A DNA stretch of 64,000 nt from an uncultured Spirochaetota bacterium (GCA_963835575.1 CAWIGG010000003.1:1-64000); one strand, 5' to 3'. Counted from the first letter of the stretch, positions 1 through 12,673 are shown. Numbers and translations are program-made. Notes: generated from the sequence alone by a model not told the origin.

Positions 1-299
1 ACGGTATTCCCGGACAGGGCTTTGAAGATGACATTCACCCGGCAAGCTTCCTCAATCCTGCGTGATGTAGTAATACCTTTCGAATAGGCAAAAAGGATTA
101 TTTTCAGAAGAATTGCCGGAGAAATCGCTTTCGAGCCTGTTTTATCATTTTTATAATTTGCATCAAAACAGGAAAGGTCAGCCTTTTCCTCGATTAGGAA
201 ATTGAGTGTGTGTTCATATGTTCCTTCGATCAGCTGATCTGAAAAACTGAGCGGTATCATTTCCATCTGCTCATAATTAACTGTCTTGTATCTTGCCAT
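1..299 (-). CDS. IS1182-family transposase, N-terminal part
   Basis: Manual translation MARYKTVNYEQMEMIPLSFSDQLIEGTYEHTLNFLI...PAILLKIILFAYSKGITTSRRIE, homologous to the 1785..3278 transposase. Confidence 0.9.
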   Translation of the reverse strand, partial: MARYKTVNYEQMEMIPLSFSDQLIEGTYEHTLNFLIEEKADLSCFDANYKNDKTGSKAISPAILLKIILFAYSKGITTSRRIEEACRVNVIFKALSGNT

Positions 300-387
300 A
301 TAACCTTCCGCTATTGATTTATTTCATTCATTATTTTAAGCTATATCGATAATAATTTACATTAAATATCACTTTTTCGACAGACTC
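1..387 (-). mobile_element. IS1182-family element #1 (left part only; runs off the window)
   Basis: Terminal ...TTTTTCGACAGACTC ends at 387, resembling the IRs of the IS at 5073-6751; followed by AAC and an attC-like site. Confidence 0.85.
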
Positions 388-551
388 AACAGCGGCTAAA
401 ACGCTGCGGTGCTCGGCGTTGCGACGCCTGCGCTCCTCGTCCGGCGGGAAGTAGGACGAAGAAGAAGACGCCGGACTCACCACATTTGCTCGCTAAGAAA
501 ACGTAAACGTTTTCTAAAGCTCGCAAACGTCGCCAACTCGTACCGTTGTGC
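384..551 (+). repeat. attC-like recombination site 1
   Basis: Begins ACTCAAC, ends GTTGTGC (545-551); GC-rich internal hairpins; shares CTCACCACATTTGC...GCAAACGTCG with site 2. Confidence 0.75.
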
Positions 552-788
552 GAAATAAACCAGGCAAAAATTAATTTTAGGCGCGCGCGAAAGGAGATAA
601 TTCGAAGTATCTGGAACAGCAACCAATCGCAATAAGGCTTCTGATAACGATAACTGAGAGTGAGAGGTGAAAAAATGCAAACAGAATAAAACCATTTTTA
701 TATTAGGTGCAGGGGCAAGGATTAATGCTTGAATCTTCATTCAAGATTCGGCAGTCACGGTGTACTGTTTGATTGGCAGGAGGGAATC

Positions 789-1520
789 ATGACAAATAGC
801 GTACTGAAATCCAAACCGGATTATGGTTTTGATGGTTCGCCTTTCGGCGTCACCATTGTTTGTTTTGCGGGAGTAGTTTGTTTTGGTGGGGGAGTTGCTT
901 TAATCACTTTTCCCAGTCTCAGCCTGAAGATTGTGGCCTTTGTTCTTATGCTTTGCGGTTTGTTAATGGTTCTTGTTTGTGGTTCATATCTTTATTACAT
1001 TAAGCTCGGCAAACTACACCGCAGGGACAAGATGATTTCCATGATTGATTGGAAAGGAAATGAAAAAGTCCTTGATATCGGCACTGGACGGGGACTTTTA
1101 ATGATTGGTGCTGCCAAAAAATTGACTCTGGGAAAGAGCATCGGCATTGATATTTGGAATTCGGAAGATATGCACAGCAATACTTATCAAAATACCATGA
1201 GAAATGCCGAGCTTGAGGGGGTCCTTGAAAAAGTTGAAGTAAGAAATGAGGATGTGCGAAGCATGTCCTTTCCCAATGATACCTTTGACGTGGTTCTTTC
1301 CAACCTTTGTATCCACAACATCCCTACCAAAGATGGACGAGAGAAAGCCTGCCGGGAAATAGCGAGAGTCTTGAAACCGAATGGAACAGCGATCATTACC
1401 GACAAATCACACACAAAAAAATACGGTGAAATTTTCGCAATGGAAGGGTTAACAGTGGAGTTTTTTCGTCCTTCTTTTGACGGTTCACTCCGCGGGATTG
1501 TAAAGGCGGTCAAAAAGTGA
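789..1520 (+). CDS. Class I SAM-dependent methyltransferase with N-terminal TM helices (cassette 1)
   Basis: VLDIGTGRG motif I, FDVVLSNLCIHN; ATG at 789 after GGAGGG. Confidence 0.88.
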   Translation: MTNSVLKSKPDYGFDGSPFGVTIVCFAGVVCFGGGVALITFPSLSLKIVAFVLMLCGLLMVLVCGSYLYYIKLGKLHRRDKMISMIDWKGNEKVLDIGTGRGLLMIGAAKKLTLGKSIGIDIWNSEDMHSNTYQNTMRNAELEGVLEKVEVRNEDVRSMSFPNDTFDVVLSNLCIHNIPTKDGREKACREIARVLKPNGTAIITDKSHTKKYGEIFAMEGLTVEFFRPSFDGSLRGIVKAVKK

Positions 1521-1651
1521 AGCTTATATTTGATACAAAACTCTTCAAAACTATTGGGGATTGGTGATTTTTGCAATAGGAGAATATTAAAGAAATGCGC
1601 GCGCAAGAAATTGATATATAATAGTAGTTTGCCTGGTTTACTTCGCACAAC

Positions 1652-3368
1652 GAATCTGTAGAATAACCCAATATTGAGAAAAAACCGTCTTCTTTAAACG
1701 TCTGAGAAATTGTTTTTCAGGCCTAGTATTTTTCAAAAGTATATTCTATGGCATTTTATGCTCGCAGCTCTTTTTTATGATTCCTTATATCCCTCCGAAT
1801 ACCTGGATTTTCCCGATATTGTGTACTATGTTAAATAATACCCACTGTATATTGACTTTACTTTTACCCCTGAGCGTAAACCTGTCCATACCTTTGCAAT
1901 GAGTTGTGTTTGAAAAGACCGGCTCCACAATCCCCATCCGCCTGCTGTATAAATCCCTGCCTTCAGGTGTGTCGATGAATTTTTTCATTTCATCCGAATA
2001 ATTCCTATTGTCCGCGTATAGCGGTTTTTGCAGTGTCCTGTATTTAGTGTTTTCCTTTTTCAGGCAATCCTTACGGAACGGGCAATCCCGGCAGACCGAA
2101 AGCCGGCCGATATATTTAGCATAGGTTATGTTTTTCATCTTGAACACATGGCGGAAGCGCAGTTCCTGATTATTCCTGCAGATATAAACATCGCGGCCGG
2201 CATCGTAACGAAAATCTTCTATGGTATATTTCCCTTTCTTTTCCGGTTTAAACCGGTCTCTCTCCGCAAAACGGACATCCCGTTTGCGGAACTGCTGGTC
2301 CGGAATGACGCTCCGGATTCCCGCTCCGGCAAGGTATTTTAAGTTGGCCTCGCTGAAATAGTTGGTGTCAGCCGCAAGCGGTTTTCCTTTTATTGACAAT
2401 CCGGCTTTCTTCAATAGTATATTTGTCTTCCTCGTCATCAGCTTCAGGAATTCCCCCTCCTGATTATTGCCGAACGCTTCCGGATAGACTACAACCTGAC
2501 ATTTTTCGTCGACGACAGCCAGATCGTCATACCCCTGTATCACTCCGTGTGAACTTTTTATTTTCGCGCTTTCATTGTCGGTAATATTCGACTGGACCTC
2601 ATTGTATCGCTTGCCGGGACAAGGTTTTTCCTTTTCAAGAAACCGGCCGATCTTAGCAATCTTTTTCTCGATCTTTTCAACTTGTTTTTGCTCTTTTTCT
2701 TTCCGCAGAGGCAGCCCATTGTCCAATGAATCATTCCGTTTATGCTTCTCAAGAAGCTCTTCCAGATGCGTCTGAAGTTTTTCTTTCTTCTTCTTTAAAT
2801 CCTTGAAAGTCCCGCTCCATTCTTTAGACGCGTTGGATGGAAGCTTGCATCCGTCCAGGGCGAACATACTCCCGCTGATAAGACCCAGTTCCATACAGAC
2901 CATGAGTAGATTGACAAATAGCGGAAGGATTTCATCTTTCATGGATGACACAAAATCCGCTATAGTTGTAAAATCGGGGATTGTGTTGGCAGAAAGGGCT
3001 TTTACGGTAATATTTGTCTCGCAGGCATATTCTATTTCACGGGAAGATATGAGACCGTTCCGGTAACAGTAGAGGATAACTTTCAGCAATACGGCAGGAT
3101 TGTAAGCCGAGGCTCCTGTCTCATCGTTATGATAGCGTTGATTAAATATGGAAAGATCCAGCTTATGATCGACAATATAATTCAACGTATATTCAAAAGT
3201 ACCAGTAAGTATCTGGTCGTCGAAAGCGACAGGTATAAGCTCCATCTGTTCATAGTTGACCTTTTTAAATCTCGGCATTTTTTTTCTCCCGGAATTGAAA
3301 TATTTGACCATTAATTATAAAGTATATAGGTAGATTAAACCATGATGACATGCTTTTTCTACAGATTC
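1652..3368 (-). mobile_element. IS1182-family element #2 inserted in attC site 2
   Basis: Perfect 12-bp IRs GAATCTGTAGAA/TTCTACAGATTC; AAC duplicated at 1649-1651 and 3369-3371. Confidence 0.92.
1785..3278 (-). CDS. IS1182-family DDE transposase
   Basis: DUF772-like N-terminus (AYNPAVLLKVILY), ALDGCK, ADTNY, Cys cluster, RMGIVEPVF; likely start MPRF at 3278. Confidence 0.93.
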   Translation of the reverse strand: MPRFKKVNYEQMELIPVAFDDQILTGTFEYTLNYIVDHKLDLSIFNQRYHNDETGASAYNPAVLLKVILYCYRNGLISSREIEYACETNITVKALSANTIPDFTTIADFVSSMKDEILPLFVNLLMVCMELGLISGSMFALDGCKLPSNASKEWSGTFKDLKKKKEKLQTHLEELLEKHKRNDSLDNGLPLRKEKEQKQVEKIEKKIAKIGRFLEKEKPCPGKRYNEVQSNITDNESAKIKSSHGVIQGYDDLAVVDEKCQVVVYPEAFGNNQEGEFLKLMTRKTNILLKKAGLSIKGKPLAADTNYFSEANLKYLAGAGIRSVIPDQQFRKRDVRFAERDRFKPEKKGKYTIEDFRYDAGRDVYICRNNQELRFRHVFKMKNITYAKYIGRLSVCRDCPFRKDCLKKENTKYRTLQKPLYADNRNYSDEMKKFIDTPEGRDLYSRRMGIVEPVFSNTTHCKGMDRFTLRGKSKVNIQWVLFNIVHNIGKIQVFGGI

Positions 3369-3540
3369 AACAGCGCGTAGACGCTCCGCTCCGTGCTCGC
3401 AAGTTGCGCGCGAGGCTCGGTCTCACCTTTTGTCGGGTAGGTCGGAGAAGAATGACAAAAGGTTCACCACATTTGCAAGCCTAAGAGCGGCAAGCCTGAC
3501 TCTAAGGCTTGCAAACGTCGTTTGTCCGCAACCGTTAGGC
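3365..3540 (+). repeat. attC-like site 2 (original R'' GCACAAC at 1645-1651 separated by the IS)
   Basis: ATTCAAC...GTTAGGC (3534-3540); internal sequence similar to sites 1 and 3. Confidence 0.8.
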
Positions 3541-3581
3541 GAAACGGACTGCCGGCTTTTAATTTATAAATAAGAAATAGC

Positions 3582-3610
3582 TTGACATATAGCATTATTA
3601 TTAGTACTAT
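3582..3610 (+). promoter_or_regulatory. sigma70 promoter of TA cassette 2 with overlapping near-palindromic operator
   Basis: TTGACA-N17-TACTAT; AGTACTATATATAATACT overlaps the -10 box. Confidence 0.75.
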
Positions 3611-3640
3611 ATATAATACTATTAATAAGGAGGTAATTTT

Positions 3641-3898
3641 ATGGTCCATACTATTACAGCGAATGATCTTAAAACAAAAGGGGTAAATGCTATCGATGAA
3701 GCAACACATGAAGGAAGCGAAGCATTTATTTCAATTCGTGGTAAAAATAAATTTGTCGTGTTATCTCTTGATAAATATAACTACTTAAGAGAATGCGAAT
3801 TGGAAGCCGCATTATTTGAAGCAAGGAATGATATAAAAAATGATAAATTTTTTATAGAATCCGTTGATGAACATATCAAGAGAATTAAAAATGCCTAA
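3641..3898 (+). CDS. Phd/YefM-family antitoxin
   Basis: TITANDLK...ISIRGKNKFVVLSLDKY pattern; strong RBS; overlaps toxin gene. Confidence 0.85.
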   Translation: MVHTITANDLKTKGVNAIDEATHEGSEAFISIRGKNKFVVLSLDKYNYLRECELEAALFEARNDIKNDKFFIESVDEHIKRIKNA

Positions 3899-4163
3899 GA
3901 TTATTTATACTGAAAGTTATAATAAAAGAGCTTCAAAATTCATAAAAAAACATCCTGAGCTAATAGGACAATATGAAAAAACATTAAAATTAATGGAAAT
4001 TGATCCAAAACATCCATCACTTAGATTACATAAGCTAAAAGGAAAATTATCTGAATTATATTCAATTTCTATAAGTATTTCTTATCGGATCACAATTGAT
4101 TTTATAATAGAGAACGACATCATTATTCCGATTGATGTTGGATCTCACGACGATGTGTATTAA
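3891..4163 (+). CDS. RelE/ParE-superfamily toxin (YafQ/HigB-like)
   Basis: HPSLRLHKLKG...SISISYRI...DVGSHDDVY. Confidence 0.87.
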   Translation: MPKIIYTESYNKRASKFIKKHPELIGQYEKTLKLMEIDPKHPSLRLHKLKGKLSELYSISISISYRITIDFIIENDIIIPIDVGSHDDVY

Positions 4164-4183
4164 TTAAATCGGCAGTCCGCATC

Positions 4184-4353
4184 GTCCAACACGGCGTTTG
4201 CGCTGCGGTGCGTGCTCGTAAACTGCGCGCGCTCCTCGGTCTCACCAGCTGCCGCAGGTAGGCCGGAAGAAGCGCAACGCAGGGCTCACCAAACCGGCTC
4301 GGCAAGAGCGAAGCTCTAAGCCTCGCCGGCTTCGCAAACGCCGACCGTTAGGC
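4184..4353 (+). repeat. attC-like site 3 (intact, no IS)
   Basis: R'' GTCCAAC, perfect 11-bp arms CGGCGTTTGCG/CGCAAACGCCG, R' GTTAGGC (4347-4353). Confidence 0.85.
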
Positions 4354-4395
4354 GAAACGGACGGCCACAGCTTTTGTTAAACCCCCAAAATACTA

Positions 4396-4440
4396 TTGAC
4401 AAGTTATATAATAACACATATAATTATACTATAATAGTAT
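4396..4440 (+). promoter_or_regulatory. Consensus sigma70 promoter and probable operator of TA cassette 3
   Basis: TTGACA-N17-TATAAT, then near-palindrome ATACTATAATAGTAT. Confidence 0.8.
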
Positions 4441-4458
4441 GAGAGGTTTAAAAATATT

Positions 4459-4743
4459 ATGTTAGTTGATACAGAAAGAATGATTCCTATCACTAAACTT
4501 CAAAAAGAATTAACTCAAAGGATCAGAGAAATTTCAAATGATGGAAATCCATTATATGTTCTAAAAAATAATGAAATGGAAGCTGTGATTTTATCTCCTT
4601 CAGATTATGAATATCTAATGACTTTGAATGACCTTATTGAATATTATGAAATCGATAATGTTATCAAAAAAAGAATGAAAAATTATAATCGGTCTAAAAA
4701 TATTAAATGGGAAGATTTAAAAAATCATGAATCATCAAATTGA
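4459..4743 (+). CDS. Phd/YefM-family antitoxin
   Basis: MIPITKLQ...PLYVLKNNEMEAVILSPSDYE. Confidence 0.87.
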   Translation: MLVDTERMIPITKLQKELTQRIREISNDGNPLYVLKNNEMEAVILSPSDYEYLMTLNDLIEYYEIDNVIKKRMKNYNRSKNIKWEDLKNHESSN

Positions 4744-5038
4744 ATTCATACTTGAAGCTTCTGAAGATTATAAGAGTCTAGATGGAAGTGTAAAAAAGAA
4801 AGTCAACAAAAAACTTGATGACTTATCAGATAATCCATTTCTAGGTGAGCATTTAGGAAATAAATTCAATATTGATTTAACCGGATTTTATAAAATATAT
4901 GTTGATAATAAAAAAATAAGAATTGTTTATCGTTTAATTGATGAAGAGATTGAAATTATTGAAATTTGGGGAATTGGTAAAAGAGACAAAGAAGAAATTT
5001 ATAAATTAATTGGTCAAAGGTTAAACAAGAGGAAATAG
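4727..5038 (+). CDS. RelE/StbE-family toxin
   Basis: EASEDYKSLDGSV...NPFLGEHL...KIRIVY...IWGIGKR. Confidence 0.88.
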   Translation: MNHQIEFILEASEDYKSLDGSVKKKVNKKLDDLSDNPFLGEHLGNKFNIDLTGFYKIYVDNKKIRIVYRLIDEEIEIIEIWGIGKRDKEEIYKLIGQRLNKRK

Positions 5039-5072
5039 TTAAATATGTGGCCGTCCGCATCGCCTAACAGCG

Positions 5073-6751
5073 GAGTCTGTCGCAAAAGCTGCCGAATGAA
5101 TCAGCGATGTCATATTGAAAATGGCTTATTTAATAATTTTATAACTTTCTCGGGTAATATGATCATTCAGTCCGGATTTTAACTGTATCTCCTGCCCCTA
5201 ATCCTACAATTTAATCCCCAAAGCCGCCATTTTCCTGAAATTGTACGCAATGCAGACCATATGCCAGATAGTGTTTACACTATCCAGACCGCGGTAGTAA
5301 AACCTTCCGAAGTTGAAGTATTCTTTTATCGTCCCGAAAATGTGCTCGATCAGGCAGGCACGCTCATTGTAAGTTCTTTTACCTTCAATACTCCTAAGCT
5401 TTTCCTTCATCTTGCGCCTTAATTCAACCGTTTCAAAATATTCATACTTTACATTAAACCGTTTGTTTTTTAATGCTTCCAGCTTACCGGCGCAATTTGA
5501 AAGCAGCTTGCACTTCCTGCACAACTCACGCTTTGGATAGAAACGGTAATTCTTGACTCCCCGATCATTATAAGCTCTTTCCGCGCACATAATCTGGCCT
5601 CCGGGGCATTTGATTTTCCTGATATTACCGTCAATTATTAATTCACAGTCTTTGGATGTTATTTTATCCTTGTTCTTTCTCTTTTTCGGACTTCCGTCTT
5701 CTTCTTTTCCTTCGGGGATATAAAGGTCGATCTTTTTATCTTCACCGTATTGGATATTATCCGATGTGAAATATCCGGCGTCCAGCGTGAACTTTGTGTC
5801 TTCCTTCGGCTCTTCCTGGTGATCCATTACTTCCTCTATCATCGGGACAGCAAGGTTACGGTCGCTTGCGCAGTCTGATACCATCGCGCCGGTCAGAAAT
5901 TCATTTTTACTGTCAACGGCGGCCTGGCAATTATACCCGGGGCCGATTGATCCGTTATTCATTTTCATTAACCTGGCGTCTTTGTCTGTCAGGTTTACGC
6001 TTTCCGTTTCGTCTAAATTCCTGTCCTCAACTGTTTTCAGAAATTTGTCTATCCCGGATTTCTGCTGTTGAAACTTCTTGAGTTTATTTGCCATCCTTTT
6101 TGAATATTTATCATCGGTATTGCTGTTCACCGTTTCCTGGAGGATTTTTAAGATCTTTTCCTCGATTTTATCCTTTTTATCCCGGAATTCCTTCGCATTC
6201 CCCGTGAAATTCCTGTTGGCCGATGCCTTTATCTTTGTACCGTCTATAGCTTCCAGTTCATAACTGATAAAACCCGATTTCGCCAGAATGTATACCATTT
6301 TCCCGAAAATACTAACGATTTCATCCAGGTATTTATTGATAAATCTACAGATATTACTGTGGTCAACGGTGGTATTTCCCGCGAGATAAATCGTGTTCAG
6401 GTCGTTTTTCATCCTTTTTTCTATTTTACGTGAAGTGTAAATACCGGACGCGAAGCTGTAAAAAAGGACTTTCAGCATCATTGTAGGGTTGACCGCTTTT
6501 GCTCCCGTTGTTTGATTCCGCAGTTTAACGGCAAATTCAGCGGGGGAAATATAGCTCTCAACATAATCGTCAATGACTTTGACCAGCAGATTGTTTTCCC
6601 TGATTTTGTCGGGATCGACGGTCAGCCAGTAGATTTGATCGCGAATATATTTTTTGAATTTCCCCAGCATTTGACACCTCTTAAATATGGTTTTATTATA
6701 TTCTATCGTAAGTTATGAAAAATGTACATGAAGAGCTTTTGCGACAGACTC
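5073..6751 (-). mobile_element. IS1182-family element #3 inserted in attC site 4
   Basis: Perfect 18-bp IRs GAGTCTGTCGCAAAAGCT/AGCTTTTGCGACAGACTC; 4-bp duplication AGCG (5069-5072, 6752-6755). Confidence 0.93.
5204..6670 (-). CDS. IS1182-family DDE transposase
   Basis: AIDGTKIKASA, NLTDKDAR, GYNCQ, LDAGY, IEHIFGTIK. Confidence 0.94.
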   Translation of the reverse strand: MLGKFKKYIRDQIYWLTVDPDKIRENNLLVKVIDDYVESYISPAEFAVKLRNQTTGAKAVNPTMMLKVLFYSFASGIYTSRKIEKRMKNDLNTIYLAGNTTVDHSNICRFINKYLDEIVSIFGKMVYILAKSGFISYELEAIDGTKIKASANRNFTGNAKEFRDKKDKIEEKILKILQETVNSNTDDKYSKRMANKLKKFQQQKSGIDKFLKTVEDRNLDETESVNLTDKDARLMKMNNGSIGPGYNCQAAVDSKNEFLTGAMVSDCASDRNLAVPMIEEVMDHQEEPKEDTKFTLDAGYFTSDNIQYGEDKKIDLYIPEGKEEDGSPKKRKNKDKITSKDCELIIDGNIRKIKCPGGQIMCAERAYNDRGVKNYRFYPKRELCRKCKLLSNCAGKLEALKNKRFNVKYEYFETVELRRKMKEKLRSIEGKRTYNERACLIEHIFGTIKEYFNFGRFYYRGLDSVNTIWHMVCIAYNFRKMAALGIKL

Positions 6752-6941
6752 AGCGGGCAAACGTTCCGCTCCTCGGCTGCTGCGGCAGCCTGCGGTGCTC
6801 AGGATCGCCCGGCCGCCTACAGATCGACTTCGCCGTTGATCTGCCTGTAAGTTTTCAGGCCCGGCCTCCGCATATCTGCACAATTAACATTAAGTAAGAT
6901 GTGAAATCAGATATTTATTATAGTTTTTATGGGGGTTTCAA

Positions 6942-7801: not shown

Positions 7802-10800
7802 ATGAAAAAAAAATGTTATACAATCGGCTTCCTTTTCGGGGATTTTTACGGAGCTTATACGGCGAATTTGTTTTTCAATATCGTTAAAGCCTGCAGGGAG
7901 TCCGGCCAGAACATCATAGGATTCGGAGGCGGCTTTTTAAAAAGTCCCGGCGGAAGCGTCCTGGGAGAGAACTGTAATTATATTTTCGATCTGGCGAATA
8001 AAGGAAATATCGACGGGATCATACTGGAAGGGTCCATCGGCAATTTTATTTCTAAAAATGAGATGAAAGACTTCCTGAAAAAATATTCCGGCATTCCAAT
8101 AATCAATATCGGGACTAATATCGAAGGCGTATACAACATACTTATCGATAATAAAAAAAGGAATGGAAGATCTAGTCACGCACCTGGTTGAGTATCACAA
8201 TTATAAAAAAATCGCTTTTATCGCCGGGACGGAAGGCAATTTCGACGCGGCGCAGCGGTTTGAAGCATATGAAAATGTCCTCCGGCGGCATAATATCGCC
8301 CTGGATAAGAATTTAATAGCTAACGGAAATTTCAGCTACCGTGAAGGCATAATGGCTTTTGAGACCCTGGAAAAAAGAAAAGTGGAATATGACGCCGTTG
8401 TCTGCGCGAATGATTATATGGCTATCAGCGCCATGCTGGAAATGCAGAAGCGAGGCTTAAAAATTCCCGATGACGCGGCTGTTACCGGATTTGACGATAC
8501 GGAGGAATGCTGGACGGTAAAACCGGCGCTGACAACCGTCAAACAGCCGTTTTATGAAATCGGCCAGGAAAGCGTAAAATTGCTTGTTTCGATACTGGAC
8601 GAGGAAAAGGCGCCCAAAAGCATCACACTGCCGACCCAATTGATCATCAGGGAATCATGCGGCTGCAAAGCCATGGATAAATTGAACCATATCATGGGTG
8701 ATAGATTCAGAAAGAATGAATCGGATAAGAAACACTATATCATCAATGATAATAAAGAATTTATAGAAAAGGCGGCGGCAAATATCGATAATGAGCTTCA
8801 GCTCCTTAAAAATAAATATAACTTGAAAAAATGGATAAAAGATCTGATCGATTCCTATTGCGCCGTTAAAGCCGGGGAAAATAAAAACCAGTTATTTGAT
8901 AAATTTCCTGGGATTTTTCACAAACTGATGGACGGCAGCGAAGAAATAATAACCATCTATAAATTTATTTCTATTTTTTACCATAATCTCTTAAACCGGT
9001 TTGTCAGGCCAGATGAAAAGGAAGAAGTATCACATTTACTGAATGAGACTCTTGCTTTATTCGTTTTGATGGTAAAGGAAGACGAATAAGAAAAAAAGGC
9101 GAAATTGAAGCTGGAATCCCATGTCGTTGTCGAGTTTAACGAGAATTTTATATACACTTTCGATATTGAAAAGCTCAAGGACGTGGTTTTAAACAATCTT
9201 CCGCTCTTTCAATTCAAAAACTTTTTCGCATGTCTATTTGAGGACCAGACCCGGGAAAAATCAAGGATCCTCATGGCCTATGATAAAAATAATATCGAGA
9301 AAATCAGTTATGAGGCTTTCCCGTCAAAATATTTACTGCCGTCTAAAATAAATAAAGACAAACCTTTTGAATATATTGTCATGGCGCTGAATTATATAGA
9401 CGAATATTTCGGCTACGCGATATATGATATCCAGACATTAACGACTTTTATCTATGAATCCCTTTCCGTTCAGATCAGCGGCGCGATTAAAGGTGCGCGG
9501 CTGACAAACGAACCGAATAAATATATGACCCAGCTGGAAAACAAAGTTAAAGAAAGAACGACAGAACTGGAAAGGGCCAACACCAAATTAAAGGAACTCG
9601 ACGCTTTAAAAAACGATTTCATCGCGAATATAACTCATGATTTCAGATCGCCGCTGACAGTCATCCTGAACGCCGCCGATCTGGCCATCCGTTTTGACAC
9701 CGATATAAATAAAGAAGTTAAAGACCAATTCAATATGATCTATAAATCTTCCCTGCGGCTTAAAAACACCATAGACAAGCTTCTGGAACTCGCGAAAATA
9801 GACGCCAAAGGCATTAAACTGAGAATTGAAAGAGTGGACATTGTGTCCTGTCTTTTATCAATAGTTGATTATTATAGATCATCTGTTATATCGAGCGGTA
9901 TTAAAATCGAGAAACTTTTTCCTGATCATAAAATAGAATATTTTTATACGGATATGGAGAAACTTGAGGAGATTCTCGATAACGTTCTATCAAACGCGAT
10001 CAAATTCATCGATCCGAATACCGGGGTGATTAAAGTCGAGCTGGCGGAACTGGAAAAAGACATAATGATCGCTGTTTCGGACAACGGGATCGGAATACAC
10101 GGTGATAAATTAAAAGTCGTTTTCAACAGGTTTGAGCAGCTCCAAGAGGGAAGAAACAGCCAGTACCGGGGCACAGGCATAGGCCTGGCTTTCTCGAAAC
10201 AGCTGACTGATTATTTGAAAGGGAAAATATGGGCGGAATCGGAGGGGGGAAGGAAAAGGATCGAAATTCACCCTCCTTCTGAAAAAAGGGAGAGAACATT
10301 TTAACGAACATGATATAAGCGGAGAAAAAGAAGAAAGATATAAAAACGCTTATTGAAGCCGAACTGGAAGAAAAACTGCATAACGATAATATGCAGACAT
10401 TGTTTGAGGATTTAAATAAGGAAAATGAATCGGATTATAGAAAAGGCGTCATCCTGATCATAGATGATGATAAGAATATCTGCGGGATTATTTATAAATA
10501 CCTTTATGAAAACGGCTTCAAAAATTTTATTTTGGCGCCGGACGGGATGCAGGGCCTCGAAGCCGTGTATGAGTACTCGCCGGACATCATCATCTGTGAT
10601 TTCAATATGCCGAATATGAAAGGGGACGACCTTCATAACAGGCTGGCCGGCAATCCGGAATACAGGGAAATTCCATTTTTATTTCTGTCCGCCGTCGCGG
10701 ATGACAGGCTGATGTACGAAAGAAGGGAGCTGGGGGCCGCCGCCTATCTGAAGAAACCGATTGAGGAAAAATTGCTGGTCATAACGGTTGACGAACAGCT

Positions 10801-11515
10801 GAAGAAATATTATGAATTAAAAACAATAAAGCGGCTGGCCACAATGGACGAACTGACCGGGCTGAACAACCGGAGATCAATCCTGGAGAACTTAAAGCGG
10901 GAACTATCCATAAGAAAATACCGCGATCTGTCGGTCCTTTTTATTGATATTGACAATTTCAAGGAAATAAATGAGGGTTACGGCCATCAGGCGGGGGACC
11001 TGGCTATTTTGATGACCGGCAAAACAATAAAAACGGCAATCAGGAAATACGATACGGCAGGGAGATACGGAGGCGACGAATTTATGGTCATTCTTCCCGG
11101 TGCCGGCTTGGACAACGCGGTATCTGCGGCGGAAGTTCTGAGAAAGGCAATTATGGACAAAAAATTAAAATATCAGAATAAAGAAGTGTCGGTTACCTCA
11201 AGCTTCGGAGCGGCATCGTTAAGGGATAACGCGGAATATATAGAAAAAACCCTCGGTATTGAAAATTTGAAGGAACTCTATGCGGTCCGGAACAGGGAAG
11301 AAGCAGACTGGAATAAAATCGAAAAACAGAAAGAGCGTGTCTCCGAACTCATTTTAAAAATGGCCGTTGAAGCGCTCTGTCAGGCAAATAAAACCGGCTT
11401 CAATAAATGCGGGTTTAATTCCGGAAAGAGAAAAACCTTTCCCGGCGATAAATGCCCGGAATGCGGAAGCGGTGATTTAACAGCAGGGCGCAACAGGATT
11501 GTAAAATTCGGATAG
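7802..11515 (+). pseudogene. Disrupted hybrid sensor: LacI-type ligand-binding domain, HisKA/HATPase, REC, GGDEF (split in 4 ORFs)
   Basis: VCANDYMA/VTGFDD, ITHDFRSPL, GTGIGL, DFNMP, RKYD...GGDEF; frameshifts near 8155, 10245 and 10320, in-frame TAA at 9087. Confidence 0.8.
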
Positions 11516-11749
11516 AACATTCCTGGTTTGAATACGGCCGCCTCCATTCTAAAATTCATAATCCAATCAAAATTCAGCTTTTTTTGATTAAAGGCTTACA
11601 GTTAATAAAAAGGCAAATTATTTATTTGCCTGTTATGGAAAAATGTTCGCAAATGAAAATAATAAGCCGCCGGCATAGACAAAAAATTGAATAATGACCT
11701 GTGAACTTTTATAATATAAACAGTAAAAAGTTAATATTAAGAGGATATT

Positions 11750-12673
11750 TTGAAACATATCGATATTTTAATTCATGTCATATGCCTGTTATCCGGCATT
11801 ATAACCGCGCTATTGGGCTTTCTGCTCTATTTGAAATATAAAATAAAAGCCATCTGGAATTATGCTTTGTTTATTTTAACCACAACATTTACAGTGGCCG
11901 CCACGACTTTTTACAGTTATGTATCTTATTATGTGAATTTAAGCCAGAATTCACTTGTTCAAGCCGCGGGGACCCTGATATTCGGTATATTATTAGCGCT
12001 GATTAATTACGCTTTTACATTATTCGCCCTGGGAATCATGAACAAACCGCTTGGTATTTTCAATAAAGTTACCATCGGTATTCCATGGCTTATTACTATT
12101 ATATCGTTTTTTACGCTGTTATATCATTATATCGGGAAAAAAGGCGTCCAGATGCCGCCGGTCCTTAATATTTGTACCGGGTTGATATTGATCATTCTAT
12201 TCTTTTCCTTTGTTATCTACAGTATTCAAATCGCCTTTAATTTAAAATATATAGATAACCTGGACCTCAAAAGGGCATTAAAAGTCCTTGCGTTATTAAT
12301 CATCATTGTTATACCGCTCCAGATGCTCATCATTATTTTCTTAAAACAGACTGTGATCATATTTCTTACGCGCAACCTCTTCTATTTCGCGATCAATATT
12401 ACCAGTATTATTTTTGCCGCCAAATATTTTTTCATAGAAACACCCTCTATTACCGGCCCGATAGAAATCAGCGGTCATTTTATCAATAAATTCGCCATTA
12501 CCGGCCGCGAAAAAGAAGTGATAGAGCTTCTCCTCTCCGGGCTTTTCATCAAGGAAATCAGCGCAAAGCTTGGCCGTTCCTTCAAGACTGTCAATAACCA
12601 CATCTATAATATATACAGGAAGACCAGCGTCAGCAGCAAGCTGGAACTCCTGAATTTAATCAAAGAAAAGTAA
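11750..12673 (+). CDS. Membrane-embedded LuxR-family transcriptional regulator
   Basis: Multiple TM helices then ITGREKEVIELL...KTVNNHIYNIYRK HTH. Confidence 0.9.
   Translation: MKHIDILIHVICLLSGIITALLGFLLYLKYKIKAIWNYALFILTTTFTVAATTFYSYVSYYVNLSQNSLVQAAGTLIFGILLALINYAFTLFALGIMNKPLGIFNKVTIGIPWLITIISFFTLLYHYIGKKGVQMPPVLNICTGLILIILFFSFVIYSIQIAFNLKYIDNLDLKRALKVLALLIIIVIPLQMLIIIFLKQTVIIFLTRNLFYFAINITSIIFAAKYFFIETPSITGPIEISGHFINKFAITGREKEVIELLLSGLFIKEISAKLGRSFKTVNNHIYNIYRKTSVSSKLELLNLIKEK

Follow-up and report, generated by a model that had tools for sequence, protein, structure and literature searches.

IS1182-family insertion sequences at attC-like sites of a spirochaete gene-cassette array and of canonical integrons

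Three different insertion sequences (ISs) of the IS1182 family, here termed IS1, IS2, and IS3, occupy three of four consecutive attC-like sites within positions 1-6755 of a 64-kb stretch of DNA from an uncultured Spirochaetota bacterium (GCA_963835575.1). This stretch (hereafter the window) comprises the first 64 kb of contig C3 in a genome of 4.39 Mb (designated G000; 4,386,260 bases, 7 contigs), and its positions 1-6900 constitute the distal end of a gene-cassette array. We consider it probable that these are three active or recently active IS1182 elements from two deep lineages, whose transposases choose the foot of attC-type hairpins as their target. Because attC sites are the only fixed points of cassette arrays, whatever lands there affects the evolution of the array.

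Each cassette open reading frame (ORF) or ORF pair in the window is trailed by a long imperfect palindrome between RYYYAAC and GTTRRRY, and the three elements are located at, or just inside, the RYYYAAC end, i.e., the ORF-proximal core box (R''). The elements and sites are as follows (nhmmer values refer to the repeat profile defined below):

1-387, minus strand: IS1, IS1182-family element of 1722 bp when complete, of which the right-hand 387 bp are present (identity to positions 1336-1722 of the complete genome copies, 99.2%)
3-299, minus strand: first 99 codons of the IS1 transposase, a stub truncated at the contig start
388-551, plus strand: attC-like site 1, portion right of IS1 (duplicated AAC 388-390, body, and distal box GTTGTGC 545-551; nhmmer 385-557, E = 1.1e-20)
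1645-1651, plus strand: R'' of attC-like site 2, GCACAAC, whose AAC (1649-1651) supplies the left of the two duplicated target triplets
1652-3368, minus strand: IS2, complete IS1182-family element of 1717 bp (transposase 1785-3311, minus strand, 508 aa)
3369-3540, plus strand: attC-like site 2, portion right of IS2 (second AAC 3369-3371, body, and distal box GTTAGGC 3534-3540; nhmmer 3365-3548, E = 8.6e-39)
4184-4353, plus strand: attC-like site 3, unoccupied, from GTCCAAC (4184-4190) to GTTAGGC (4347-4353; nhmmer 4179-4360, E = 7.9e-37)
5062-5072, plus strand: attC-like site 4, left part (R'' box GCCTAAC 5062-5068; AGCG 5069-5072 is the left copy of a 4-bp duplication)
5073-6751, minus strand: IS3, complete IS1182-family element of 1679 bp with inverted repeats GAGTCTGTCGCAAAAGCT (transposase 5204-6670, minus strand, 488 aa)
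6752-6810, plus strand: attC-like site 4, right part, the last array site in the window (second AGCG 6752-6755 and partial body; nhmmer 6751-6810, E = 0.002)

The terminal repeat of IS1 (CTTTTTCGACAGACTC) stops at 387 and AAC follows directly at 388-390; its left end lies beyond the window because the window begins at a contig end. IS2 is bounded by the inverted repeats GAATCTGTAGAA / TTCTACAGATTC and flanked by AAC on both sides (1649-1651 and 3369-3371), and IS3 is inserted 4 nt past the AAC of GCCTAAC, with AGCG duplicated. A first-pass annotation of this DNA had already pointed to three clearly different IS1182 transposases in three of four consecutive sites, with IS1 and IS2 ending just before a duplicated AAC of R'' and IS3 lying 4 nt further in beside a duplicated AGCG, all elements being antisense to the cassettes and no cassette gene being hit. 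Our analysis bears this out: the cassette ORFs are all on the plus strand and the transposase genes all on the minus strand, and no ORF is interrupted by an IS. The fourth site, which had also been taken as attC-like, is less clear, in that its right part matches the repeat profile but its distal half after 6755 is degenerate.

Profile searches place the window elements in the IS1182 family of DDE insertion sequences. Against NCBIfam NF033551 (IS1182 family; cut-off, 270 bits), the transposase of IS3 scored 307.2 bits, that of IS2 259.7 bits (full length, about 10 under the cut-off), and the 99-aa stub of IS1 46.8 bits, and the full ORFs of IS2 and IS3 contain the Pfam domains DUF772, DDE_Tnp_1, and DDE_Tnp_1_6, all over their cut-offs. 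The transposases are 56% (IS1 vs IS2), 26% (IS1 vs IS3), and 22% (IS2 vs IS3) identical. Terminal inverted repeats of 12-18 bp are accompanied by target duplications of 3 bp (IS1, IS2, and two further members of their group, IS1b and a miniature element) or 4 bp (IS3). No DEDD (IS110-type) transposase is present in the window elements, whose profile matches are only of the IS1182 and DDE_Tnp_1 type, and no reverse transcriptase domain was detected in their ORFs by protein profiles (RNA structure was not searched).

In these properties the elements differ from two known groups of attC colonizers. Elements of the IS1111-attC group (IS110/IS1111), reportedly described by Tetu and Holmes in 2008 and by Post and Hall in 2009, are said to insert in attC sites. 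They are comparable to the present elements in using one fixed attC position and one orientation, in sparing cassette genes, and in occurring in many arrays, but have a DEDD transposase and subterminal repeats instead of an IS1182-type DDE transposase, 12-18-bp terminal inverted repeats, and 3-4-bp duplications; they are not known to make a target duplication. Target choice by IS1111-type elements is RNA-guided, by a seekRNA or bridge RNA (Siddiquee et al. 2024, PMC11187229). Group IIC-attC introns (PMC3001079) are likewise mobile elements that colonize the attC sites of arrays in a fixed orientation; however, they are retroelements with a ribozyme and a reverse transcriptase and without a transposase cut, whereas those studied here are DNA transposons.

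The window insertions belong to a genome-wide pattern. BLAST searches of G000 detected 6 full-length copies of IS1 (1722 bp; 5 at 100% and 1 at 99.9% identity) plus contig-end pieces, 6 full-length copies of IS3 (98.5-100% identical; the five besides the window copy at 98.5-99.3%) plus fragments, and a single full copy of IS2, of which a 30-bp left-end remnant is also located after gctcaac. The near identity of the IS1 copies implies recent transposition. IS1b (transposase identity with IS1, 81%) lies between gcctaac and aacacggcgtaggag, i.e., at the same spot of the repeat, and a 110-bp transposase-less miniature inverted-repeat transposable element (MITE) of the IS1/IS2 group (inverted repeats GAGACTGTAGAAAAAG / CTTTTTCTACAGATTC; C5:~1327-1436, with an identical sequence near C2:2045110-2045218) lies between gtacaac and aacagcgcgtagacg, with an AAC duplication at the same attC-like box. 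Among the IS1 junctions in G000, the left flank ends in YAAC in 8/8 and the right flank begins with AAC in 8/8. Copies of IS3 are flanked by AGCG, ACGT, or ACGG, usually after AAC; one of them, on contig C7, has the opposite orientation.

Twelve G000 repeats were aligned, and the nhmmer profile built from them was searched against the genome, which yielded 55 matches (about 50 repeats) that cover 8801 of 4,386,260 bases (0.20%) and lie mostly within a few arrays; 10 of the 55 adjoin an IS1182 element. When the independent insertions of the IS1/IS2 group are counted (n = 11: 7 IS1, IS1b, IS2, the IS2 end fragment, and the 110-bp MITE), 7 adjoin an nhmmer-supported attC-like repeat, an eighth (IS1b) lies in a more divergent repeat recognized by eye, and for 2, whose surroundings are rearranged, the likeness is confined to an R''-like left flank. 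For IS3 (n = 8), 3 insertions adjoin an nhmmer-supported repeat and 3 have only an R''-like left flank. The expectation of the first-pass annotation that other copies would not be at unrelated sites holds for most insertions, which are at attC-like repeats, but fails for 1 of the 11 in the IS1 group and 2 of the 8 of IS3, which are in ordinary sequence and clearly not attC. Over both groups, 4 of the 19 insertions were rated as unclear or off-target. Under uniform insertion, the binomial tails are 4e-20 for 8/11 (IS1/IS2 group) and 4e-7 for 3/8 (IS3). Short words are not a sufficient explanation either, since YAACA occurs 13,199 times in G000, TAACG 5,330 times, and even YAACA[GC][CG]G 1,006 times, far above the roughly 50 repeats in which 7-8 of the 11 insertions are found. 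These counts, together with those across genomes reported below, exclude chance.

The repeats that are hit consist of inverse core boxes RYYYAAC...GTTRRRY (e.g., GTCCAAC...GTTAGGC and GCACAAC...GTTAGGC) around an imperfect palindrome, with complementary arms and one extra base in the proximal arm. One repeat follows each co-oriented cassette ORF, and repeat bodies recur together with their upstream ORFs at different places. In more than 25 pairs (not independent) with identical bodies, the identity of the upstream flanks is 0.98-1.0 and that of the flanks past the distal GTT is 0.5-0.65; since upstream flanks are kept and divergence begins directly after the distal GTT, cassettes appear to be exchanged at the distal box. 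By architecture and behaviour, the G000 repeats are attC-like sites of a non-canonical integron-like system. Their attC status was judged by core boxes, arms, nhmmer profile, and context. Genome scans based on regular expressions plus complementarity or on constrained minimum free energy were dropped, as they proved too noisy: a reversed control scored just as often, and the 227 'strong' hairpins were spread across genes.

A canonical IntI was not found in G000, where the best TIGR02249 scores were 212-213 bits against a cut-off of 265, and the sites are therefore named attC-like and not by association with IntI. The following tyrosine recombinases are located at the heads of the arrays:

C2:46687-47781, minus strand: tyrosine recombinase
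C6:427150-428208, minus strand: tyrosine recombinase
C7:4728-5786, minus strand: tyrosine recombinase, near-copy of that on C6
C1:10005-10973, plus strand: tyrosine recombinase, near-copy of that on C6

These proteins are 353-365 aa long, have an extra N-terminal region of about 85 aa, are co-oriented with the cassettes, and find their best NCBIfam match in NF040815 (216-238 bits). They leave positions ~172-237 of the TIGR02249 profile unmatched, which we take to be the IntI-specific insertion. Both this recombinase and the form of the repeats, which are long (150-240 nt) and have spacers of 1 nt (proximal) and 3-5 nt (distal) compared with about 5 and 5 in classical sites, would suit another family of hairpins with a different recombinase, in which case the elements might target hairpins in general. 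Such behaviour is known for IS1272/TnSha1 of staphylococci, a member of the IS1182 family that inserts into any hairpin in either orientation and without sequence preference, makes no duplication, and partly or wholly deletes the stem-loop (PMC4923244, PMC5678879). Nevertheless, it is very improbable that the window repeats are of this kind: RYYYAAC/GTTRRRY boxes stand after each co-oriented ORF, cassettes recur in varied contexts with the junction at the distal GTT, and relatives of the transposases are found next to true intI genes, in attC sites of the classical kind (57-130 nt; see below). Moreover, unlike IS1272, the present elements make duplications of 3-4 bp, leave the hairpin intact, and use one orientation and one fixed position at its foot, marked by a conserved TAAC. 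What the comparison does support is the existence of structure-directed targeting within the IS1182 family, for IS1272 also has a hairpin or inverted repeat as target; some IS1182 members target palindromes according to Siguier et al. 2015, as quoted in PMC4923244 and PMC5678879.

Relatives of the transposases extend the pattern beyond G000. Within the same order, close relatives (54-57% identical) are present only in 2 of 34 other genomes, both from a sister genus; here, 9 junctions in 8 loci read CTACAGGCTC / AAC-A- and then an attC-like arm, and the transposase gene runs opposite to the adjoining ORFs in 6/6 loci. A scan of prokaryotes (one genome per species; based on an alignment of five transposases) matched at least 616 stretches, of which at least 571 encode relatives, and 78 loci were kept. 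Among the matches listed, the transposases of these loci are 41-59% identical, the hosts belong to Nitrospirota, Thermodesulfobacteriota and other 'delta' groups, Gammaproteobacteria, Planctomycetota, Omnitrophota, Acidobacteriota, and others, and nearly all relatives have termini GAG.CTGTAGAAAAA and a 3-bp duplication. Collecting the other copies and homologues, as the first-pass annotation had advised, showed that this genome, the sister genus, and many phyla agree both in the type of repeat and in the position occupied within it.

The same matches provided 37 distinct AAC-duplication sites with both flanks, 10 from one Nitrospirota genome and 27 from elsewhere. The latter 27 read T-A-A-C in 27/27 and G at +1 in 26/27, with R-Y-M at -7 to -5 and no conservation at +2 to +5. 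Many of these targets are textbook attC sites of 57-130 nt (e.g., L049, L064, L070, L072, L074, and L110). We also compared length-normalized energies of hairpins closed by AAC/GTT, the threshold being the 5% tail of 400 random TAAC sites; two earlier home-made attC scores had been replaced, the first because 14% of random TAAC sites reached >=13 and the second because it missed evident attC sites. A strong AAC/GTT-closed hairpin lies to the right of YAAC^ in 17/26 sites, compared with 3/26 in the mirror control, in which AAC is the 3' foot.

Many of these hosts contain canonical integrons. An intI gene over the TIGR02249 cut-off is present in 13/16 hosts of AAC-type elements (one of the others has a fragment only and two have none) and in 0/4 hosts of elements with other targets. 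Eight arrays in which both genes could be placed on the contig were inspected (G035, G036, G037, G406, G408, G409, G410, and G413). In 8/8, the IS lies on the cassette side of intI at a distance of 0.6-14 kb, with intI divergent from the cassettes (267.7-488 bits; the lowest score is that of G408, where intI is in two pieces), and in 8/8 the transposase gene is on the cassette strand, i.e., co-oriented. The cassette-sense strand reads distal arm, spacer, C-GTT, the IS, GTTRRRY, and then the next cassette, a polarity confirmed by uninterrupted attC sites of the same arrays; in alignments of uninterrupted canonical attC sites (21, then 8), MAFFT left the distal arms unaligned and RNAalifold recovered 6 pairs. 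In canonical integrons, therefore, the clade hits R' and duplicates the crossover triplet GTT. The subclade of G000 and the sister genus uses the other box, R'', with the element antisense to the cassettes. A common rule nevertheless covers both cases: the transposase gene is always antisense to the strand with the sequence 5'-YAAC^hairpin-3'. Directly after the cut, the large clade has G and the spirochaete subclade A. This fits the box chosen, since in classical sites R'' has the form YAAC-A/C and R' the form C-GTT.

One of the canonical arrays, in a Sedimentisphaerales host (L126; G410:C14), holds two copies of the IS1182 clade together with an IS4-family transposase and, antisense to the cassettes, the reverse transcriptase of a group II intron (TIGR04416, 426 bits); the coordinates listed for this array are 8199-9728 and 10723-11892, both on the minus strand.

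The location exactly at the G/TT crossover triplet in canonical arrays, and the fact that GTT plus the element terminus gives GTTGAG., close to GTTRRRY, could also be explained if the integrase captured the IS as a pseudo-cassette, so that GTT...GTT would be cassette boundaries and the abutted inverted repeats of an IS circle would replace attC. We find this hardly credible. Outside attC, too, 3-bp duplications are made, and further triplets (AGC, AAA, and ATG on the YAAC-reading strand) may be the ones duplicated, the box hit in G000 is R'' and not the crossover box, G000 is without canonical IntI, and the junction of a circularized element would have no RYYYAAC partner.

In a quick tree, the only phylogeny made, IS3 and a 78%-identical metagenome relative form a very distant branch, and the remaining 52 rows fall into two groups. 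One, a group of 8, has AGC duplications at the target ATAGC^AGTNATC, which is not attC; the other, a clade of 44, comprises the AAC^A subclade of the spirochaetes and a multi-phylum clade of 38 rows that is almost all AAC^G. The large clade mixes phyla, which points to horizontal transfer. IS3 has close relatives only on two metagenome contigs, and these too occupy the beginning of the proximal arm in repeats of the G000 type. Searches elsewhere returned one 33%-identical match in 400 other Spirochaetota genomes, none at E <= 1e-70 in 401 Thermodesulfobacteriota genomes, and no close relative on plasmids (1559 records, all <60% identity, best ~30%, nearest <32%), and nothing in the plasmid search with the IS3 transposase connected it with clinical class 1 integrons. 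Relatives of IS3 being scarce, most of the evidence for its lineage comes from G000. These data modify the proposal of the first-pass annotation that one lineage of DDE IS1182 elements is specialized on attC hairpins: the specialization is supported, but it involves two deep lineages (22-26% identical), whose cuts are 4 nt apart and whose duplications are 3 vs 4 bp.

Several observations weigh against targeting of attC hairpins by these elements, or limit it. Three copies in G000, one of IS1 (C2:1831104) and two of IS3 (C5:344049 and C5:160683), lie in ordinary sequence and are flanked by intact duplications. Within G000, sequence and structure are inseparable as cues, the attC-like repeats sharing so much sequence, and the invariant TAAC^G across phyla implies that sequence contributes to targeting. 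The hairpin test is home-made, insensitive, and calibrated on a genome of 42% G+C, and two sites that are attC by context (L106 and L109) fail it. In the Nitrospirota genome, the 10 distinct TAAC^G sites lie in a MITE-like repeat of about 190 bp and have hairpin z values of -1.6 to +0.2. A sister clade (L053, L054, L058, L066, L094, L095, and L101-L104), found in a 'delta proteobacterium', Syntrophales, and Acidobacteriota, has the same termini and duplicates AGC at ATAGC^AGTNATC; the hairpin test gave no signal at these AGC-type sites. Targeting of attC is thus not universal, since this sister clade and one Nitrospirota genome use other targets, and GAG.C termini are shared by elements that do not insert in attC.

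In the Nitrospirota genome (L075-L091), at least 15 copies of one element are located at GGGCGAGTAAC^GCCGAGCCCAC inside the ~190-bp repeat, which has terminal inverted repeats of its own (CTGCAATTCAGACAGTAC...). Either the element has repeatedly targeted the MITE-like repeat, or both move together.

Plain sequence specificity (TAAC^G, or YAAC^A in spirochaetes) combined with tolerance, by which harmless sites in arrays would accumulate copies, is the strongest competing explanation on these grounds: TAAC^G is invariant in 26-27 of 27 sites, off-target and Nitrospirota copies have the word without a hairpin, and the sister clade recognizes a different, equally sharp word. Still, we consider it rather unlikely. 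The abundance of both words in G000 relative to the share of insertions that fall in repeats speaks against it, as does the one-sidedness of the hairpin in comparison with the mirror control. In addition, conservation is absent at +2 to +5, the arms vary from phylum to phylum, and tolerance alone would not fix a single nucleotide position.

The IS1/IS2 clade cuts with a 3-nt stagger that spans the conserved AAC/GTT triplet in one of the inverse core boxes, and IS3 with a 4-nt stagger just inside this triplet. In the spirochaete subclade, the YAAC-reading strand is the cassette-sense strand, so that R'' is hit (YAAC^A), and in the multi-phylum clade it is the bottom strand, so that R', the box with the integron crossover triplet, is hit (top strand C-GTT^GTTRRRY). 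Besides TAAC^G/A, the transposase may read a structural feature, such as a cruciform, a folded single strand, or a bound protein. We infer that a structural cue of this sort would be needed in addition to the short word, because the phyla have nothing but the short word in common, the side on which the hairpin lies never changes, and structure-directed IS1272 is already a member of the family.

It is possible that insertion at this position also preserves the site. The element terminus (GAG.C / G.CTC) plus the duplicated triplet would restore a near-consensus core box (GTTGAG. or ACTCAAC). In G000, ..GACTC/AAC and ..GATTC/AAC give ACTCAAC and ATTCAAC, which fit RYYYAAC; in canonical arrays, GTT/GAG.C gives GTTGAGG, GTTGAGC, GTTGAAC, etc., always with three purines and only in some with a pyrimidine as the seventh base. 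An occupied site may thereby stay recombinogenic, and the IS may travel within a cassette (in canonical arrays the one downstream, in G000 the same one). On the other hand, such core-box 'mimicry' may be a family trait and not an adaptation, since the non-attC sister clade has the same termini. We offer only tentatively the wider scenario that the phylum-spanning clade reads folded or cruciform attC at TAAC/GTTA and inserts at the crossover triplet, that the rebuilt core box lets the IS hitch-hike in cassettes between arrays and hosts, and that the spirochaete subclade was re-tuned to the other box of a system whose recombinase lacks the IntI insertion.

The IS1182 family, hairpin targeting within it, and attC targeting by other elements are known; IS1182 elements on attC are new within the literature searched. 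The full-text search found no description of IS1182 targeting attC, with ISfinder, TnCentral, and Siguier et al. 2015 being outside its scope, and the statement of the first-pass annotation that such targeting had not been described holds within that full-text literature. In size (here 1.68-1.72 kb), single transposase ORF, terminal repeats of about 16 bp, and short duplication, the elements resemble ordinary members such as ISPse1 (1653 bp, inverted repeats 16/16, 4-bp duplication; PMC3281130), for which, as for other ordinary members, a preference for attC is unreported. Elsewhere in the literature, 23% of complete integrons are reported to hold an IS, with families unnamed (PMC4889954), a Treponema array contains transposases, again with the family unnamed (PMC3607928), and IS1182 and attC are both named, yet unrelated, in PMC9137128, the tmexCD preprint, PMC3971601, and PMC9374279. 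Within the literature searched, attC targeting was described only for the DEDD, RNA-guided IS group and the retro-intron lineage. The present elements, from a common DDE family of the cut-and-paste type, would thus add a third way, independent in mechanism, of splitting arrays, rearranging them, or turning them into integrase-less clusters, and would be a natural case of a DDE transposase apparently combining a 5-nt word with DNA structure. Such targeting suggests that insertion sequences can move between hosts as cassette passengers, and the elements may serve as an independent marker for unusual attC-like sites, e.g., those of the insertion-less recombinase system of the spirochaete.

The cassette genes between the sites in the window are as follows:

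729-1520, plus strand: cassette gene for a class I S-adenosylmethionine-dependent methyltransferase (Methyltransf_11 and Methyltransf_25, E ~1e-15)
3641-4163, plus strand: cassette with a two-gene toxin-antitoxin-like pair, a Phd/YefM-like antitoxin at 3641-3898 (PhdYeFM_antitox, E = 2.5e-4, below the Pfam cut-off) and a second ORF at 3864-4163 without a Pfam match
4459-5038, plus strand: cassette with a toxin-antitoxin-like pair, a Phd/YefM-like antitoxin at 4459-4743 and a ParE/YoeB-like toxin at 4727-5038

The two toxin-antitoxin-like cassettes are neighbours, and an AT-rich promoter-like stretch is present upstream of both. Four contig ends of G000 are located inside IS1 or IS3 copies in cassette arrays (C2:1-604, C3:1-387, C5:1-160, and C7:1-1678), and the end of C2 overlaps the start of C5; the arrays are thus fragmented in the assembly, as contig ends fall inside these repeated elements. 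An IS3 copy at C6:417250-421527 is itself split by an insertion of about 2.6 kb (C6:418302-420892).

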